Source of the DNA: Acidimicrobiia bacterium
GTDB taxonomy: Bacteria; Actinomycetota; Acidimicrobiia; Spongiisociales; ZC4RG35
Direction of reading: 5' to 3'
Assembly (NCBI GenBank): GCA_965203555.1
Contig: CBDBCY010000004.1
Span: 2,464,001 to 2,528,000 of the forward strand
Length of the DNA: 64,000 nucleotides
Shown: positions 1 to 13,694 of the stretch, in pieces
Layout: each line of letters begins with the position of its first letter
Numbering within the stretch: position 1 is the stretch's first letter
Translations under genes and position numbers: made by a program
The notes under the pieces: generated by a model
The model's input: the letters and a program-made list of their open reading frames with translations, nothing else
Database searches by the model: none
Told to the model about the DNA's origin: nothing

Positions 1-224
1 CCGCCGTTCCAAGGTGAGAGCATCGGTGTAGGTTTATAGCTTTCCAGGAAGAATCCCTGTATGGCGTCGCGGGCTAGGTCACTGTTGATGTGGAGAGTGG
101 AGTCCTTCCAAAAAGACAAAAGCTCAGACGAGCATTGCTTATGGAGAATGCTCAGAATCCCTAATCCTCGTAGGTATGAGAGCAAGGGAGTAGAACGACA
201 ACCGGTCAAGGCGATGAGACTCAA
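1..224 (-). CDS. csx17: Type I-G (I-U) Cascade large subunit Csx17/Cas8g, N-terminal part (runs off the window edge)
   Basis: Not in the ORF track. A TTG start overlaps the cas3 stop (TTGA). It translates MSLIALTGCRSTPLLSYLRGLGIL...FFLESYKPTPMLSPWNGG, matching the Csx17 N-terminal pattern GC.P.PL.SYL..LG...Y.PTP..SPWNGG. Confidence 0.88.
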   Translation of the reverse strand, partial: MSLIALTGCRSTPLLSYLRGLGILSILHKQCSSELLSFWKDSTLHINSDLARDAIQGFFLESYKPTPMLSPWNG

Positions 225-2614
225 GACAGTGCCCTCCCCGGGTTAGCACTGGCTCGCCAATCGGCCATCCTCACCAGCATCTCCAGAAATGCCAGACGGA
301 AGGGTCCCAGATCGGACCGATCGCGGAGTGTGAGCATCCGAGCGGTGTAACTGGGGGCAAGACCATCGCCGTTGCCCAAGCCTACGTCTGCGAGACAAAC
401 CTCGCCCCCGCGGGTCTTCCCGCCGGGTATCTCCACGGCTGGCACGTAGTCGCCATCCACCACCCCGAGCGCGATGTCTCGGGCTCTCTTGTTCGGCGGG
501 GGCCGTTCGTCTTCCAATCGACGGACCCCCAACCGGACTCGGCCATGGTGTCCTGCTGCTAAGAAAACCACTAGGTCAGGTTCAGCTACGTCTTCAAGAA
601 GGAATCGTTCGGGGCCAAGCAGCATCAAGGCGGAGACAAGACCGTGCCGGAAGTGTCTCTGGGAGTATCTCAAGGTCCGTTTGTTTCCTCCTTTGGCGAG
701 CACCGCTTCCTCCTCCGGGAGAGGATCAGAGTCTGCCCGTGTCTTCCTGATAGCGTCTTGGAAAACTTGATGTGCCTTGCCGAGGTCGTGATATCTGGCA
801 GCCAACCGTGCCGCCTGAACGGCATTGGTAGGTACGTCAAGGGATCCGAATTCGTCTATTATTTCTACGAAGGATGATTCGGTGTCCGCCAAATGATCCC
901 GGAGTGTCAACCACGGGACTCGGGAGAAGGCGCTTGCCGGATCATCGCCTATAGCCGAATCATGCTGATCGGCCAACACTTTATCGCCGGAGACCGGCGT
1001 AACAGGTTTGGAGGAACGGTCCCAGCCCAGTTCGGATCCATAACCGCCGGTGGCTACGTCAAGGACAACCGTCAAATTAGGTCGTATGTCACGGGCCAAG
1101 ATTTGCGACCAGCGGCGTTCGCCCCGGGCTAGCGGATCTGCTACAAAGGCACGCGCTTTTTTATTGCTGACGAATCTCCGTAACTCTCCTATAGGTACAC
1201 GGCAGATCTCTGTGGCGGAGGGTCCGGTATCAGGCGACGGATGGTTGTCGTCGGTGACCGTGCGCCAGAGCACCATCACGTCACGATCAGCGGTGTCGCG
1301 AATGAACCGCCCGACGTCAATGTCGTTGCCGGTCAGGTCTGGCAAGGTGTCGAACAACTCAACAAGGTCACGTCTGCGGAGAGTGGGAACCGGATCGAGG
1401 TTCGTTTGGACAGTCTTTGCCGACAGCGATGTCGGTGTAACCGTGTCTGGGAGGCTGGTCAGCACTCTCTCGGCAGTGTCGAGTTCATCTTGGTTGTAGG
1501 GATGAGCAGTCTTAGGTCGCATCCACAACATCTGGGCGTCCACTGTTTCGCCTGTTCTGTTGCAGCGTCCCGCTCTTTGCACGAGGGATGACCAAGGCGC
1601 CAGATCGGTGAGGAGGGTTGCAGATGAGATGTCCAGGCCGGCTTCCACGACCTGGGTGGCAATCACAATGCGTCCCGATAATGGGATATCAGCCAGGATC
1701 CGGCTTAGCGCAGCTTGGCGGTCTCCTTGGCGAAATCGTGAATGAATCAGTACCACCTCAGCGTCTGTCTTCATTCTCCTGAGTGCCTTATAAGAGTCCT
1801 GTGCGCGCCTCACATTGTTCGCAACCACCAGTGTCAAAGTGTCGGGTCGGTGATTGTCATAGGCGAGGCGGGCTACATCTATAGGTTTTGGTGCGTGTCC
1901 AACATCTCGGATTTGACGCGGCGCGTCAGATCGTTTGGTCAATGTCTCCCAGGAGCGATCCTCTTCGCCGAGTTCCACAATGCGGCCTACCTCCGGTGCA
2001 TCAACGGTCTTAAGCGCATTGAAGTTCACTGTTGCCGACATCCACATGGTGCTCGTGGGCTGAGCGGTGCCGAAGATCTCGCGAAAGGCTTGAATTTGAC
2101 GCCCGGTCGACACGGCTGCATCCATCAGTTGGATCTCATCGAATACCCACTGGCACCCGGAGTTGAAGGCGCCGAAAGAGATGGGCCAATTCCATCGGTT
2201 GTCTGCGAATCCGCGGTTGAGAGCCCGTGAGAGAAGCATGTCCATCGTGCCTATGAACACGGCATCACGCTCTGGATTGAGTCTCCACTCTTGATCACTC
2301 CAGGCGGCTCCGCCCATCACGCGGTGGACTCCCAGTTCTTCCTGGCCGAGACCAAGGGCTTCCCGCCACTTGACGAACCGATTGAAGGTTTGGTCGACAA
2401 GTGTGCGCATGGGAAGGGCGTAAACCAGCCATCTAGGGGTTGTCCCCCGGGCGGCGTGCCTCCGGAGCCACAGCCAACTAAGCCCCGCGGCTTCCGTTTT
2501 CCCACATCCCGTATCCACTCGCAACACTTCGGGCAATCCTTCGTGGGCGAGACGCGATTGGTAGGGATAGGGATTGTGGCTTGTCGCCTGCCGGAAAAAA
2601 CCGCTGAAATCCAT
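221..2614 (-). CDS. cas3: Cas3 helicase-nuclease with C-terminal HD domain (type I-G architecture)
   Basis: SF2 motifs: PYPYQ, TGCGKT, LPMRTL, DEIQ, MSAT, HSRF, ATQVVEAGLD, QRAGRCNR. C-terminal HD motifs: DHL, HDLGK, RH, GHHG, MADWRAS. A GGAGG SD precedes the ATG. Confidence 0.95.
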   Translation of the reverse strand: MDFSGFFRQATSHNPYPYQSRLAHEGLPEVLRVDTGCGKTEAAGLSWLWLRRHAARGTTPRWLVYALPMRTLVDQTFNRFVKWREALGLGQEELGVHRVMGGAAWSDQEWRLNPERDAVFIGTMDMLLSRALNRGFADNRWNWPISFGAFNSGCQWVFDEIQLMDAAVSTGRQIQAFREIFGTAQPTSTMWMSATVNFNALKTVDAPEVGRIVELGEEDRSWETLTKRSDAPRQIRDVGHAPKPIDVARLAYDNHRPDTLTLVVANNVRRAQDSYKALRRMKTDAEVVLIHSRFRQGDRQAALSRILADIPLSGRIVIATQVVEAGLDISSATLLTDLAPWSSLVQRAGRCNRTGETVDAQMLWMRPKTAHPYNQDELDTAERVLTSLPDTVTPTSLSAKTVQTNLDPVPTLRRRDLVELFDTLPDLTGNDIDVGRFIRDTADRDVMVLWRTVTDDNHPSPDTGPSATEICRVPIGELRRFVSNKKARAFVADPLARGERRWSQILARDIRPNLTVVLDVATGGYGSELGWDRSSKPVTPVSGDKVLADQHDSAIGDDPASAFSRVPWLTLRDHLADTESSFVEIIDEFGSLDVPTNAVQAARLAARYHDLGKAHQVFQDAIRKTRADSDPLPEEEAVLAKGGNKRTLRYSQRHFRHGLVSALMLLGPERFLLEDVAEPDLVVFLAAGHHGRVRLGVRRLEDERPPPNKRARDIALGVVDGDYVPAVEIPGGKTRGGEVCLADVGLGNGDGLAPSYTARMLTLRDRSDLGPFRLAFLEMLVRMADWRASANPGRALS

Positions 2615-2901
2615 TACTTACCTCCACCAGTGGGAGCAAGGCCCACTTTCTTAGGGACGGGTGTCGTTGGATAGCATCTTCGGGTACGCATTTCTGTCGT
2701 TGGCTTAGTGTAGATAGAGGGGTGTGACACCTTGCCATTGGCGTTTTTAGTTGGAGGTCTCTGACTGAAGCAGATAGAGCACATGGGGACATTCCCGCTG
2801 CCCCAAGCGTCAACGGGTTCTCCTTTGGTCTTGTGAGCGCGCCATTCCCAATAGTCATGTTGCTTTCCTCCAGCGATGATCCACGGTGTGATGAGACCCA
2901 T
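2614..2901 (-). CDS. Hypothetical 95-aa ORF translationally coupled to cas3 (uncertain)
   Basis: ATG at 2901 lies just after the TATAAT box. Its TAA overlaps the cas3 ATG (TAATG). It contains CxxC but no recognisable family motif. Confidence 0.35.
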   Translation of the reverse strand: MGLITPWIIAGGKQHDYWEWRAHKTKGEPVDAWGSGNVPMCSICFSQRPPTKNANGKVSHPSIYTKPTTEMRTRRCYPTTPVPKKVGLAPTGGGK

Positions 2902-2910
2902 GTCGCCTTG

Positions 2911-2940
2911 ATTATAGGCACTCTGGTCCCATACAGCCAA
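2911..2940 (-). promoter_or_regulatory. Predicted sigma70 promoter of the uORF-cas3-csx17 operon
   Basis: Minus strand reads TTGGCT (2940-2935), 18 nt, then a perfect TATAAT (2916-2911), oriented toward cas3. Confidence 0.7.
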
Positions 2941-2968
2941 CTATCAGCAACTGTACTCACGGGAAGCC

Positions 2969-3051
2969 AAAAGAGGCAGGACCTGGCGAGGGTCCCGGCA
3001 GGTTGAGCATACATCCAGCTATCAGGCCGCAATGGAGGCCAGGTCCCGCCT
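2969..3051 (-). CRISPR. Single-spacer crRNA-like element (CreA/CreR-like) with a split I-G repeat
   Basis: Minus strand: AGGCGGGACCTGGC-CTCC-ATTGCGGC (3' half of an actinobacterial I-G-like repeat), then the spacer CTGATAGCTGGATGTATG..., then GCCAGGTCCTGCCT-CTTTT. Spacer nt 1-18 match 2947-2930 at 16/18 with an upstream TTG PAM. Confidence 0.7.
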
Positions 3052-3057
3052 TGTCGG

Positions 3058-3086
3058 AGGATACCGCAATTGCCACTTGACAAGTG
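3058..3086 (-). promoter_or_regulatory. Putative promoter and operator for the crRNA-like RNA
   Basis: A -10-like TATCCT at 3063-3058 places +1 near 3051, the first base of the RNA stem. The palindrome CACTTG-A-CAAGTG lies at 3074-3086. Confidence 0.4.
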
Positions 3087-3212
3087 TCAGGACAGGGAGA
3101 AGCGTGTTGCCTCAGCCTGGAGGCCTTTTGGCAGGTCCAACGCGCACCACCCCGACATTCATCTGCGGGGGAGGGGGAGATTGGTGTGGTGTATTGTTCG
3201 GCGCAAAGCATT

Positions 3213-3434
3213 ATGACCAACGACCTGACCGACGAGGGTGTGGAGGCAATCCTGCAACGTGGTTCCCCTGCCTCATGGCCGGACTCCCACAGTGATGAGT
3301 TGAAGATACCCTTCGGTCGCCACCGGGATAACATCTGGATCATCGGGGATATCGTCTCTCCCATGCCTGTCGAGTGGTTCGAAGGGAGTGTTGATGGGGA
3401 CGAGGACTTGTTTAGCCCACTGACGAGTGGTTAA
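3213..3434 (+). CDS. Small antitoxin-like protein (DUF2281/VapB-type C-terminus), no cognate toxin adjacent
   Basis: 73 aa. PFGRHRDNIWIIGDIVSPMPVEWF resembles the G..kG.iwI..D...P.p tail of VapB-type antitoxins, including the one at 46652. Confidence 0.45.
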   Translation: MTNDLTDEGVEAILQRGSPASWPDSHSDELKIPFGRHRDNIWIIGDIVSPMPVEWFEGSVDGDEDLFSPLTSG

Positions 3435-3467
3435 GTCAAGAGGAATGCCGAGGGATTGCACTATGGA

Positions 3468-3558
3468 GCGTTCGGTGGAGTTGCGCTCCATCGCCTGGGT
3501 TGTTTCACCACTGACACTTCCTCCTGATCCCCTCCTGAGTCGGAGATGGCCAGTGCGC
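3468..3558 (-). pseudogene. Degenerate duplicate of the wecB 3' region
   Basis: Translates ALAISDSGGDQEEVSVVKQP/RNSTER versus wecB ALAVSDSGGVQEEVSVVKRP...RNSTER. An 18-bp stretch is identical at 3468-3485 and 5130-5147. Confidence 0.75.
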
Positions 3559-3694
3559 CTCTGGCGAATGGAGCAAGTGGGATGAACGGGACCGCTGATG
3601 GAGGGCGGCAGGGGGTGGCAAAGAGCCAATCTGTCACAGGGCCAAGGTTATGCTGAGCCTATGGTGTCCAGTCGAGATCAGGAGGGGAAACCGT

Positions 3695-4450
3695 ATGACA
3701 ACTGAAGCCGCTGTCTTTTCTGGAAGTGAGGCGACCCAAGGGGCGACGCGCACCTTGTTCCAATCAAAAAAGCGTGAGGTGCGGAATGGCGCTGCTACGA
3801 ACGAGCTTGTTCTGAGCGCCTATGTGGGTGGGAACGAACATGTCTTTCCTCGAGTGATGGGCTTGTACGTAAGTCCCGGAAGTGTGGTGGCTGATGTCAC
3901 CTACGGCAAGGGTGTGTTCTGGAAGAACATACCGGCCGACCGCTATACGCTCCTGGCCACGGACATCCAGGACGGGGTGGACTGCCGGGATCTCCCTTAT
4001 GCGGATGAAGAGATCGACTGTGTGGTTCTCGATCCCCCTTACATGCACTCACCTGGGGGTACTGCCCATCGCTCTCATACGCCCTTTGAGACCTACTACA
4101 GGAATAACGGGTCGGGAGGACAGACTCGTCGGAAATATCACGAAGCCGTTTTGGACCTGTACCTCGACGCTGCGCGGGAAGCGTATCGTGTGTTGCGCGA
4201 GAGGGGCGTTTTCATCGTCAAGTGCCAAGATCAGGTTTGTTCCAACCGGCAGCGCTTCACCCATGTCGAGATTATGGAGGCGTGTGGCGAGATGGGGTTC
4301 GTCGCGGAAGACCTGTTTGTTGTTGTGCGGAACAATCGACCGGGGGTCAGCCGCGTGGTTCGCCAGGTGCATGCCCGCAAGAACCACTCCTATTTCTTGG
4401 TGTTCTGGAAGCGCGGGGCCAAGGGGTCACTGTGGGAAGCTCCCGGCTGA
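3695..4450 (+). CDS. DNA amino-methyltransferase (m6A/m4C)
   Basis: SAM-binding motif variant DVTYGKG and catalytic DPPY. A GGAGGGG SD precedes ATG 3695. Confidence 0.88.
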   Translation: MTTEAAVFSGSEATQGATRTLFQSKKREVRNGAATNELVLSAYVGGNEHVFPRVMGLYVSPGSVVADVTYGKGVFWKNIPADRYTLLATDIQDGVDCRDLPYADEEIDCVVLDPPYMHSPGGTAHRSHTPFETYYRNNGSGGQTRRKYHEAVLDLYLDAAREAYRVLRERGVFIVKCQDQVCSNRQRFTHVEIMEACGEMGFVAEDLFVVVRNNRPGVSRVVRQVHARKNHSYFLVFWKRGAKGSLWEAPG

Positions 4451-4464
4451 GTCCTGTCGACCTC

Positions 4465-4947
4465 ATGGTGAAGGTCATCAAGGATCACACACCAGAGTCG
4501 ATCTGGACGGATTCGCCTTTCATGGGTTATCGCCTGGTTGGGAACACCAATCGCGGCGAAATCGGAGAGGATTTTATTCGCCGATACTTGAAGGGGGCCG
4601 GTATCGGGGTCGGAAACGGTTCGCGCGTCACTCCAACCGATCTGCGGATCGCCGGAGAGAGGTTTGAGGTAAAGACCGCATCGTTGGGAGCGAACGCGAC
4701 CTTCCAATTCAACCATGTCCGACTCGACAAGCAATACCGATATCTGCTGTGTCTGGGGATTTGCCCTCATCGCATCGTGTTCAACGCATGGCGCAAGGGT
4801 GCTCTTTCAGAAGGAGAGGCCGGGAAGCTCGTCCGTATGGCGGAGGGACAGAGCACTACACACAAACTGACGAAGAAGCTGGCTGATATGAGGCCGATCG
4901 AGGAACTGCCCCTGTGGATTCGGGAAGAAGTAATCGAGAATGGTTAG
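4465..4947 (+). CDS. Putative PD-(D/E)xK type II restriction endonuclease
   Basis: GEIGE...TD-LRIAGERF-EVK...FQFNHVR. It directly follows the MTase; the start may be the CTG at 4447 overlapping the MTase stop. Confidence 0.7.
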   Translation: MVKVIKDHTPESIWTDSPFMGYRLVGNTNRGEIGEDFIRRYLKGAGIGVGNGSRVTPTDLRIAGERFEVKTASLGANATFQFNHVRLDKQYRYLLCLGICPHRIVFNAWRKGALSEGEAGKLVRMAEGQSTTHKLTKKLADMRPIEELPLWIREEVIENG

Positions 4948-6046
4948 CCGGAGACCAGCTTTTCGATGAGGGTGACCGAACGGAGTGAGGCTGTGCCGTC
5001 TCCGTAGGGGGTGGGGGTATTGGCTAAGCGGCGGTGGGTGCAGTCCAGGGTTTCCGTTATCTGGGTGATGGCCTCGTTCACTCCGTCGCCAGGCTTGCGG
5101 AGTATGGCGAAGGTGCCCAGGACTTCGGGGCGTTCGGTGGAGTTGCGGACGACCACCATGGGGCGTTTGACTACTGATACCTCTTCCTGAACTCCGCCCG
5201 AGTCGGAGACTGCCAGGGCGCATTCGGCGAGGAGGGAGAGGAACTCTGGGTAGGGGAGGGGTCCACTACTCGCAGCCGGTCGAGGAGCGGCTGCAGTCCG
5301 AACGAGGCGGCGCGGTGACGGCTGCGCGGGTGGAGCGGCAGCACGACCGGCAGGGAAAGTCCGGCCAGATCGGAGAGGATGGTTTTCCAAGTCCGGGGAT
5401 GGTCGACGTTCTCGGGGCGATGGAAGGTGGAGAGGATGAACCCGTTGGGATTCAGACCGTGGCGGTTCAGGATCCGAGCACGCTGGTCGGGAAGTGGAAG
5501 TAGCGACTCCAGCGCCTCCACCACCGGGTTGCCGGTGACCGCCACCCGGTCGCCCGCTATCCCCTCCCTGGCCAGGTTGGAGGCCGATGTCTCGGTGGGC
5601 GCCAGGCACAGGTCGGAGAGATGGTCGCACACCACCCGGTTGTGTTCTTCGGGCATGGCCCGGTCGTAGCTGCGCAGTCCCGCCTCCACATGCACCAGCA
5701 GAGTCTCGGTGGCGTTGGCGGCCAGTGAGCCGGCCAGCACCGCGTTGGTGTCTCCCTGCACCACCACCGCCCGCGGAGGGTCATTCAGGAAAAGACGGGT
5801 GAGGCGGGAGGTGGCCTCTCCGATCTGGATGCCCCGGGGCTCCCCTCCAACCTCGAGGAAGTGGGTCGGGAGGGGCAGGTCGAAGGCCCTGAAAAACGCC
5901 GCAGAGAGGTTGGCGTCGTAGTGCTGTCCGGTGTGGATCACCCGGGCGGCGGGTCCCAGCAGTTTGATGATGTGGGCCAGCTTGATGATTTCCGGACGGG
6001 TGCCGAGCACGATGGCGACGGCGCCGGGAGGCAGATCAGCGGTCAT
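4944..6046 (-). pseudogene. wecB: UDP-N-acetylglucosamine 2-epimerase, frameshifted near 5260
   Basis: GTRPEIIK, HTGQHY, QGDT, HVEAGLRS and PEEHNR lie in one frame; SDSGGVQEE and RNSTERPE lie in another. One C appears to be missing in a C-run (GAC CCC [C]TC CCC TAC). This could be a sequencing error. Confidence 0.85.
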
Positions 6047-7299: not shown

Positions 7300-7365
7300 T
7301 TGAACCGCCTAGATCTCCTGACGGTGACTAGGCCCAGCAAAGACCCGCCTCGAGGCGGGTCTTTG
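7300..7365 (+). ncRNA. Putative ~65-nt structured sRNA convergent on the NYN gene
   Basis: Hairpin GCCTAG...CTAGGC (7307-7333) followed by a terminator hairpin. Confidence 0.5.
7338..7365. terminator. Bidirectional intrinsic terminator
   Basis: Perfect 28-bp palindrome CAAAGACCCGCCTCGAGGCGGGTCTTTG. Confidence 0.8.
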
Positions 7366-7403
7366 TGCATCACGTCCACCGGGTCTTTGTGCATCACGTC
7401 CAC
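7356..7403. repeat. 24-bp tandem duplication
   Basis: CGGGTCTTTGTGCATCACGTCCAC at 7356-7379 and 7380-7403. Confidence 0.95.
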
Positions 7404-13364: not shown

Positions 13365-13694
13365 ATGTCGGACTTGGAAAACCAACTTAGTGAGCAGTCG
13401 AAATGGTTGGAGGACCAGTTCCAATTTATCGGCCAGTATTTCGAGTGGTTCGAAACCCAGTTCATCGAGATTCGCAAGGATGTCGGGGGTTTGAAGGAGG
13501 ATGTCGGGGGTTTGAAGGAGGACGTTGGGGGTTTGAAGGAGGATGTCGGGGATCTCAAACAGGACATCAGGGGTTTCGAACAGGAAGTGGACGCTCGATT
13601 CGAGGGCTTGGAGGAACGCCTTACGGAAAGGATCGACAACTTGGAGGCAGGCCTCGACCAGCGACTCCGGGTTGCCGAAGGGATTATCTTGTAG
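13365..13694 (+). CDS. Coiled-coil protein with KEDVGGL heptad repeats
   Basis: GGAGG SD; 21-bp tandem repeats. Confidence 0.75.
   Translation: MSDLENQLSEQSKWLEDQFQFIGQYFEWFETQFIEIRKDVGGLKEDVGGLKEDVGGLKEDVGDLKQDIRGFEQEVDARFEGLEERLTERIDNLEAGLDQRLRVAEGIIL
13477..13578 (+). repeat. 21-bp coding tandem repeat (about 5 copies)
   Basis: AAGGAGGATGTCGGGGGTTTG-like units. Confidence 0.9.

Follow-up and report, generated by a model that had tools for sequence, protein, structure and literature searches.

A putative solitary guide RNA with a split, permuted repeat stem beside the type I-G cas operon of an Acidimicrobiia bacterium

Can a CRISPR-Cas system of type I-G obtain a guide RNA from a site that holds only a fragment of one repeat? 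This question is raised by a short minus-strand region (positions 2969-3051) within a 64,000-nucleotide stretch of the genome of an Acidimicrobiia bacterium, the whole of which is referred to below as the window (C4:2464001-2528000 of the 3.4-Mb genome). The element is followed by a complete type I-G operon composed of cas3g, cas8g1/csx17, cas7g, csb2, cas4g/cas1g and cas2, and then by a six-repeat array. All six cas genes match NCBIfam models above the cut-off (e.g. NF049935, E = 2.3e-231); those from cas8g1/csx17 to cas2 sit beyond the window start. Among 61 genomes searched, the Cas3g gene was identified in G000, G008 and G039 only. The answer that we consider likely is that the region specifies a solitary autorepressor RNA of the CreR/crlRNA type, about 80-85 nt long, belonging to the type I-G system and carrying a split, permuted Csb2-binding stem.

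The native array contains six 36-nt repeats (C4:2457111-2457500) and lies 6.9 kb from the element. Read on the cas strand, its repeat is composed of CTCC, an 8-bp hairpin (GAGGGCCG-AATT-CGGCCCTC), a second CTCC and ATTGCGGC; the spacers are 35-37 nt long (read from the array by eye). In the I-G loci fetched for comparison (see below), native repeats are built of 4 nt, a G+C-rich stem of 7-8 bp, a loop of 4-6 nt, the motif C(C/T)(C/T/A)C, and ATTG followed by 4 nt. Their stems vary between genomes, and the 4-nt linker and the handle are kept. The element holds the last 12 nt of the native repeat, CTCCATTGCGGC, at 12/12 identity. This exact 12-mer is present in seven copies in the genome, six in the array and one in the element. 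The latter, which would supply the 5′ handle, is the only non-array copy and lies 412 nt upstream of where cas3 begins. At the 32 sites elsewhere in the genome that differ from the 12-mer by one mismatch, in-register stems do not exceed 8 bp.

In agreement with a preliminary description of this DNA, which denied the presence of two direct repeats, none was found at or near 2969-3051, where the 12-nt repeat fragment occurs once; the region thus falls outside the definition of a CRISPR array (at least two direct repeats separated by spacers). Screening of positions 2500-3500 against Rfam gave 0 matches at E values up to 1. Direct reading of the sequence revealed that minus-strand positions 3051-3038 pair with 2987-2974 over 14 bp, including one G-U pair. 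The enclosed loop of 50 nt is composed of CTCC, ATTGCGGC and a 38-nt segment (3025-2988, minus strand) that comprises the pseudo-spacer and the 3′ linker (Table 1). The stem, its loop and the CTTTT that follows are exactly as had been described, and the -10-like TATCCT reported with them is present. Neither arm has a local pairing partner, and no local hairpin precedes the linker. The element is covered in one (X2) of four contig sets, where it is identical save for one base left out at 3003.

Table 1. Positions of the features of the cas3g end of the operon and of the upstream element within the window.
Feature	Position	Strand	Remarks
cas3g, type I-G helicase-nuclease with C-terminal HD domain	221..2614	-	Pfam; TIGR02621, E = 1.1e-206
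Small conserved ORF, 95 aa, operon head	2614..2901	-	Stop codon overlaps the cas3 start
Promoter-like TTGGCT-18-TATAAT of the small ORF + cas3 operon	2911..2940	-	10/12 matches
Partial target CTGATAGTTGGCTGTATG	2930..2947	-	16/18 pseudo-spacer matches; overlaps the -35 hexamer
TTG in PAM position beside the target	2948..2950	-	The published I-G PAM is TTN
CTTTT tract after the stem	2969..2973	-	Possible transcript end
3′ arm of the long-range stem, GCCAGGTCCTGCCT	2974..2987	-	Would stand in for the 5′ strand of the repeat hairpin
Alternative local hairpin CGGGACC-CTCGCCA-GGTCCTG	2977..2997	-	Terminator-like; mutually exclusive with the long-range stem
3′ linker CCTC	2988..2991	-	Native repeat begins with CTCC
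Pseudo-spacer, 34 nt	2992..3025	-	First 18 nt match a nearby target at 16/18
8-nt 5′ handle ATTGCGGC	3026..3033	-	Same as the final 8 nt of the 36-nt native repeat
4-nt linker CTCC, stem base to handle	3034..3037	-	Same as in the native repeat
5′ arm of the long-range stem, AGGCGGGACCTGGC	3038..3051	-	Would stand in for the 3′ strand of the repeat hairpin
-10-like hexamer TATCCT (TANNNT)	3058..3063	-	Presumed element promoter, 6 nt upstream of where pairing begins

The arm order claimed in the preliminary description, with the 3′-strand arm first and the 5′-strand arm last, holds as well. It is the order expected of a crRNA that has been circularised and then reopened in its hairpin loop, and the layout may best be read as a circular permutation of one mature crRNA, opened at that point. 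Folding of positions 3055-2965 with RNAfold, a check that had been suggested for the region, returned the 14-bp stem as the minimum-energy and the centroid structure alike. The fold energy (-40.5 kcal/mol, z = -2.44, 4 of 200 shuffles equal or better) is by itself only moderately unusual; what sets the element apart is its register. The native hairpin folds at -17.2 kcal/mol, versus -31.0 kcal/mol for the split duplex. The greater length of the element stems compared with native hairpins fits a helix that closes a 50-nt loop or holds two pieces together. A native hairpin unrelated to the arms had been named beforehand as evidence against the split-stem interpretation. The two are indeed unrelated in sequence, but we do not take this as a refutation, because I-G repeat stems differ freely while linker and handle are kept. 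We assume that the Csb2 of this genome accepts the arms, unlike the native hairpin as they are.

Loci of type I-G were fetched via Cas3 (8), Cas4g/Cas1g (56) and metagenome Cas3 (8); an alignment of nine Cas4g/Cas1g proteins, for which 80 of more than 567 matches were fetched, gave 62 new loci. The pattern sought was a solitary linker-plus-handle with an in-register distant partner. It was defined first and then searched for, so the resulting counts are not blind, a concern that the controls described below limit and do not remove. The split-stem kind is rare (8 of 135 loci). The eight elements, i.e. those of the window, L035, L019, L089, L028, L029, L094 and L092, have a common layout of 5′ arm, 4-nt linker, 8-nt handle, 37-42 nt and 3′ arm, the distance from handle to 3′ arm having been measured in seven of them. 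The element lies upstream of the operon in L035 (14-bp stem) and L019 (10-bp stem), both Acidimicrobiia MAGs, upstream of cas3 in L092 (Iamiaceae MAG; 10-bp stem), and divergent from the operon in L089 (Acidimicrobiales MAG; 11 contiguous bp). In L094 (Actinomycetes MAG; bulged stem of 8 + 3 bp) it is located ~1.8 kb beyond cas1, in L029 (Candidatus Spongiisociaceae MAG; bulged stem of 7 + 7 bp) it occupies the opposite strand to cas1, and in L028 (Candidatus Aldehydirespiratoraceae MAG; 20-bp stem) it is found ~3 kb beyond the array, on the opposite strand. These hosts are named after the record titles, by which the related records are mostly sponge-associated Acidimicrobiia assemblies.

The linker and handle of the elements are identical or nearly identical to the repeat of the respective genome. 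The arms are unrelated in sequence between loci and pair with their own partner within each locus. In the seven elements other than that of L092, own-arm duplexes have a mean energy of -28.7 kcal/mol (range -15.2 to -37.8); when arms of different loci are paired, the 42 combinations have a mean of -11.5 kcal/mol, the best reaching -19.6. In the same seven elements, 66 of 70 cells in the first 10 stem positions are standard pairs, with 2-4 pair types per position. The non-Watson-Crick pairs of the stems are G-U on the handle strand, the only such pairs that the scan admitted. The pairs were counted in a table made by script and not in two MAFFT alignments (A1 and A2), in which three of the five 3′ arms were shifted by one column. 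When segments of 122 nt were folded, the minimum-energy structure contained the long-range stem for seven of the eight elements, the exception being L019 with its 10-bp stem.

Among 4,722 non-array ATTG sites in 67 loci, seven have in-register stems of at least 13 bp: three split-stem elements, two array edges and two unexplained 13-bp sites. With seven control tetramers (1,672-5,343 sites each), in-register stems were never longer than 13 bp. When 75 solitary linker-plus-handle-like sites (135 loci, 1.99 Mb) were compared, the seven best long-range duplexes were all of the split-stem kind. The local fold at these seven sites is weak (-4 to -11 kcal/mol); at ordinary repeat-like units (L013, L061 at 15905, L079) it amounts to -16 to -18 kcal/mol. 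A looser motif gave 288 solitary handle-like sites in 75 type I-G loci, mostly of proteobacteria and 1.02 Mb in total, and no split-stem element among them; nor was one found in the eight metagenome loci obtained with Cas3 or in the scanned G039 locus (L004). A covariance model, as suggested in the preliminary description, was also used. This model (R1), built from the window and L035, matched L019 (46.6 bits) and L029 (18.9 bits); it did not list L028 and also matched ordinary CRISPR arrays, because in these a repeat's 3′ half pairs, in that very register, with the 5′ half of the repeat that follows. For this reason R1 was not used for a genome survey.

In all seven elements tested, the 5′ arm is preceded by a TANNNT hexamer whose end lies 4-11 nt upstream. 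The background in the fetched loci, for hexamers ending 2-12 nt upstream, is 3,082 of 108,120 positions (2.9%), and the range of this test was picked after seeing the data. If the hexamers are promoters, a local 5′ partner strand cannot belong to the RNA. A T-rich tract follows the stem in the window, L035, L028 and L094, and is absent in L029, L019 and L089. Ordinary units with local hairpins were distinguished in L013, L100, L112 and L061. In L013, a full repeat and a spacer are followed by half a repeat that retains the 5′ strand only. By inference alone, an L013-like form that also lost the outer strand of its first repeat would yield the split-stem layout, which might thus have originated in this way.

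What might such a guide recognize? The homologues of the small ORF at the operon head hold the same position in L019, L035 and L053. This ORF has no match to a Pfam or NCBIfam family, and no word-sharing homologue was found among proteins of 52-167 residues. TTGGCT-18-TATAAT is the sole promoter-like site in positions 2700-3400, and the 95-aa ORF starts within ~10 nt of it. The -35 hexamer of this promoter is overlapped by the partial target of the pseudo-spacer, which lies beside a TTN trinucleotide, the type I-G PAM according to the available text of 10.1101/2022.08.08.503147. The last 16 nt of the pseudo-spacer match at two positions only (counted by eye).

Partial matches to a nearby TTN-flanked site were identified for the pseudo-spacers of six of the eight elements. 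In L035 the target (PAM TTA, 17/20) starts at the TTGACA -35 hexamer of a 10/12 promoter. That of L019 (PAM TTC; 18/23 by eye, 15 of the first 20 by script) lies downstream, where no consensus promoter was found, and that of L089 (PAM TTC; 14/17 by eye, 15/22 by script) is located in the divergent intergenic region. The L094 target (PAM TTA, 15/20) is on the opposite strand over the element's own -10 region; the L092 target (PAM TTC; 14/17 by eye, 14/20 by script) is on the opposite strand, 66 nt upstream. Rough estimates of the probability of such matches by chance are 8e-6 to 4e-5 for the window, L035 and L019, and 0.017 for L089. PAM-proximal mismatches, which can weaken binding in other type I systems, are present at position 8 in the window, 6 in L035, and 3 and 8 in L019. 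For L028 and L029 no target was found within their 21-kb loci; these two elements could act on other genes.

The available text of a preprint on a type I-G system describes Csb2 as recognising a repeat hairpin of 7 bp and cutting 4 nt 3′ of its base, which gives an 8-nt 5′ handle, and as staying on the hairpin (10.1101/2022.08.08.503147). The stem of the element ends exactly 4 nt before the handle, which matches this cut. We propose that transcription would start a few nucleotides after TATCCT and end near CTTTT, and that the 14-bp pairing of the arms would rebuild, beside the linker and handle, the stem normally formed locally by the repeat. Csb2 would bind this long-range stem and cut 4 nt from its base, between CTCC and ATTGCGGC, and the 18-nt 5′ piece would remain annealed to the 3′ arm. 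The guide would therefore consist of two pieces, its 5′ handle being normal and its 3′ end a duplex with Csb2 bound to it. Once loaded with it, Cascade would bind the TTG-flanked site over the -35 hexamer of the small ORF/cas3 promoter, and it would repress the promoter and not cut the DNA, because the match is confined to the first 18 nt. We thus infer where the transcript begins and ends, how it is cleaved, that the guide is in two pieces and that it represses; the element probably switches the cas genes off. The comparative evidence supports the preliminary interpretation, in which the Csb2 recognition stem would be rebuilt by long-range pairing.

A broader proposal goes beyond this locus, and we advance it tentatively, at somewhat less than even confidence. 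Type I-G systems of Actinomycetota may use a natural two-piece guide made with one Csb2 cut, its 5′ piece staying annealed as a trans strand of the 3′ handle. Such guides, made from a circularly permuted crRNA gene, may form a small family whose members repress cas promoters, with other genes as possible targets in L028 and L029. No earlier bimolecular type I crRNA would then be known from nature. Different rules have been put forward for the Csb2 of B. animalis: the available part of the preprint describes cleavage 5 nt from the repeat 5′ end and a dispensable stem-loop. These rules conflict with the cleavage model used here.

The proposed function has clear relatives. CreR, an RNA that resembles crRNAs and comes from degenerated mini-CRISPRs, turns Cascade into a repressor of its own promoter (PMC12737573; 10.1101/2023.03.10.532045). 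The accessible text of the second source gives this type of autorepression as established for types I-B, I-E and V-A, and notes creA-like elements for I-U, the old name of I-G (10.1101/2023.03.10.532045). With CreR as described in the texts available, the element has several traits in common: it is a lone crRNA-like gene between cas genes, its 5′ handle is identical to the repeat tail, its pseudo-spacer shows partial complementarity, starting at the PAM-proximal end, to a cas promoter site that is flanked by a PAM, and autorepression would be the expected outcome. CreR as described there, however, has one or two repeat-like units with an internal inverted repeat, whereas the element has one stem formed from the two ends of the RNA.

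CreA (CreTA/CrePA) and the I-C crlRNA are likewise repeat-derived guides that make Cascade a repressor via partial complementarity, as presented in the available texts of PMC9458426, 10.1101/2024.01.05.574328 and 10.1101/2024.12.27.630466. They differ from the element in the palindromic hairpins predicted and mapped inside each unit (10.1101/2024.01.05.574328; 10.1101/2024.12.27.630466), and the accessible parts of these sources describe no spacer-enclosing stem for them (PMC9458426; 10.1101/2024.01.05.574328; 10.1101/2024.12.27.630466). Haloarchaeal I-B repeat-like units are characterized in the corresponding part of PMC9458426 by the lack of a conserved hairpin. The elements of L028 and L029 could be of the CreA/single-repeat-unit kind. 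The mini-arrays and single repeat units of Shmakov et al. resemble the element in that repeat-like sequences stand alone in cas loci and their spacers match cas promoters in part (10.1101/2023.03.03.530964). According to the main text, though, they were sought by repeat similarity, and an element retaining 12 nt only would probably score poorly; the terms 'I-G' and 'I-U' are absent from that main text (10.1101/2023.03.03.530964).

With the canonical I-G crRNA, as far as the available text of 10.1101/2022.08.08.503147 describes it, the element shares the succession of stem, 4-nt linker, cut and 8-nt handle, a spacer of ~36 nt and a TTN PAM. The canonical stem, however, is a local hairpin of 7-8 bp with a 4-6 nt loop, and two cuts are made at two repeats; in the split-stem element both ends would rely on a single long-range stem, 10-20 bp long, and on one cut. 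A literature search for circularly permuted crRNAs found nothing relevant. The preliminary description did not recognise the topology as described, and we likewise found no spacer-enclosing or permuted repeat stem in the main-text passages covered. The split-stem topology therefore appears undescribed, and the I-U elements in Figure S7 of the CreR preprint might already show one. In two-piece RNAs encoded by permuted genes, such as two-piece tmRNA, and in the type II tracrRNA:crRNA duplex, a helix joins two RNA pieces after processing; their molecules and enzymes are unrelated to those considered here, and the likeness is one of analogy only.

Other explanations of the window element deserve comparison with the split-stem guide. 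One of them, which we regard as unlikely, holds that it is a degenerate mini-array, in which the alternative local hairpin with CCTC would be the second repeat and the spacer would be ~28 nt long. The 5′ arm would then be a leftover, its pairing a by-product of common descent, and the 5′ handle would be made otherwise. The local hairpin does exist: its seven pairs (CGGGACC/GGTCCTG) are followed by CCTCTTTT, i.e. CCTC and a T-run, it is the predicted fold of the window element once the 5′ piece is removed, and ordinary local-hairpin units occur in four of the loci named above. In the fold of the whole transcript, however, the 14-bp long-range stem wins, and the 5′ arm, placed 6 nt after a -10-like hexamer, is without a local partner. 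Common descent would not give arms of 10-20 bp that exceed the native 7-8 bp and differ in every locus. The alternative hairpin had also been noted in the preliminary description as a structure that could form after cleavage. It is present in the window, and the other six elements examined have no equivalent; refolding into a local 3′ hairpin after cleavage was therefore rejected as a general mechanism.

The long stem could also be cut by RNase III or another host double-strand RNase, or it could merely stabilise or terminate the transcript, the handle end being produced by trimming. Type II systems use a host RNase on their repeat duplex, which offers a parallel, the stems of 10-20 bp are longer than native repeat stems, and the T-rich tracts listed above would suit a terminator. 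The stem nevertheless always ends exactly 4 nt before the handle, in the Csb2 register, and near-identity of linker and handle to the genome's own repeat would be needless unless Csb2 and Cascade read them. The three elements lacking a T-tract after the stem speak against termination, and we hold this explanation to be quite improbable. Highly improbable, in our judgement, is an inverted repeat acting at the DNA level (a regulator site or a cruciform), or a chance palindrome beside a chance repeat fragment, with no RNA function. The modest z score of the fold and the two unrelated in-register stems of 13 bp found in the scan are what such an account would lead one to expect. It does not explain why arms, the 12-nt tail of a repeat and a gap as long as a spacer recur in exact register at eight loci, or why six of the eight pseudo-spacers match a TTN-flanked site in their own locus. 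The G-U pairs on the handle strand also count against it, within the limits of a scan that allowed these only.

If the split-stem guide is real, a repeat stem put together from both ends of one RNA is acceptable to a Cas6-type enzyme and to Cascade, and a single guide needs one stem and one cut, not two repeats. This suggests a compact design for single-guide expression in type I-G tools. The element also constitutes a natural test of whether Csb2 reads structure or sequence, a point on which the available texts of the two Csb2 preprints disagree. With no more than 12 nt of the repeat retained, split-stem elements are likely to escape array finders and searches by repeat similarity, and the autoregulation of cas genes in type I-G systems may be under-counted.

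A possible intermediate on the way to the split-stem layout of the crRNA-like RNA gene was distinguished, by its sequence, in the type I-G locus L013. This unit consists of a full repeat, followed by a low-complexity spacer (three copies of GTCCCGGTT) and then a half repeat, whose hairpin is reduced to its 5′ strand. A handle-like sequence was identified upstream of the element in the window, adjoining its −10-like hexamer TATCCT; the real 8-nt 5′ handle lies 37 nt further downstream. The handle-like sequence may be what remains of an earlier repeat, or may have arisen by chance. Beyond the divergent gene that adjoins the element there is an ORF whose 266-aa product carries part of an N6/N4 DNA methylase domain. 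Coordinates of these and other features, including two tandem repeats found elsewhere in the window, are summarized in the table.

Features distinguished in the window and in related type I-G loci
Feature	Location	Strand	Remarks
Repeat-spacer-half-repeat unit	L013, about 2267-2370	+	
Split-stem element	L028, 18006-18082	−	
Split-stem element	L029, 3223-3304	−	
95-aa ORF	window, 2614-2901	−	first in cas operon
Handle-like ATTGCGGT	window, 3063-3070	−	7/8 positions as in handle
266-aa ORF	window, 3650-4450	+	
Tandem duplication, 24 nt, exact	window, 7356-7403		
Tandem repeat, 21-nt unit, five copies	window, 13456-13588		within gene for DUF3179 protein

The rules of repeat cleavage by Csb2 conflict between two preprints. 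The Csb2 of T. sulfidiphilus is reported to bind the hairpin tightly and to cut 4 nt 3′ of it (10.1101/2022.08.08.503147), whereas that of B. animalis is reported to cut 5 nt away from the repeat's 5′ end, the stem-loop being dispensable.

Among the close relatives (loci L013-L068), type I-G genes are arranged in two different orders. The cas3-first order is present in the window, L014, L018, L032 and L053; a weaker match to cas3, with about 27-30% identity, directly precedes cas4/cas1 in L013, L022, L035 and others. The start of the 95-aa ORF in the window is placed only ~10 nt downstream of TATAAT, the −10 hexamer of a promoter-like site, so this ORF is nearly leaderless, and its stop codon overlaps the cas3 ATG. 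Homologues occupy the equivalent position in L019, L035 and L053, and the N-terminal half, which includes one CxxC motif, is conserved among them. The 95-aa ORF had no matches in Pfam or NCBIfam, and no word-sharing homologue was found among proteins of 52-167 residues.

The split-stem elements of L028 and L029 are located on the strand opposite to cas1, that of L028 ~3 kb past the array. A search of their own 21-kb loci revealed no targets flanked by TTN (the published type I-G PAM). Genes elsewhere may be their regulatory targets. In L089, L092 and L094, the TTN-flanked target partly matched by the pseudo-spacer overlaps the promoter region of the element itself, being situated upstream of it on the opposite strand. 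The L092 element is followed by cas3 on the same strand. Because the targets cover the element promoter, and cas3 of L092 lies downstream in the same orientation, the guide and the cas genes may share a single promoter.
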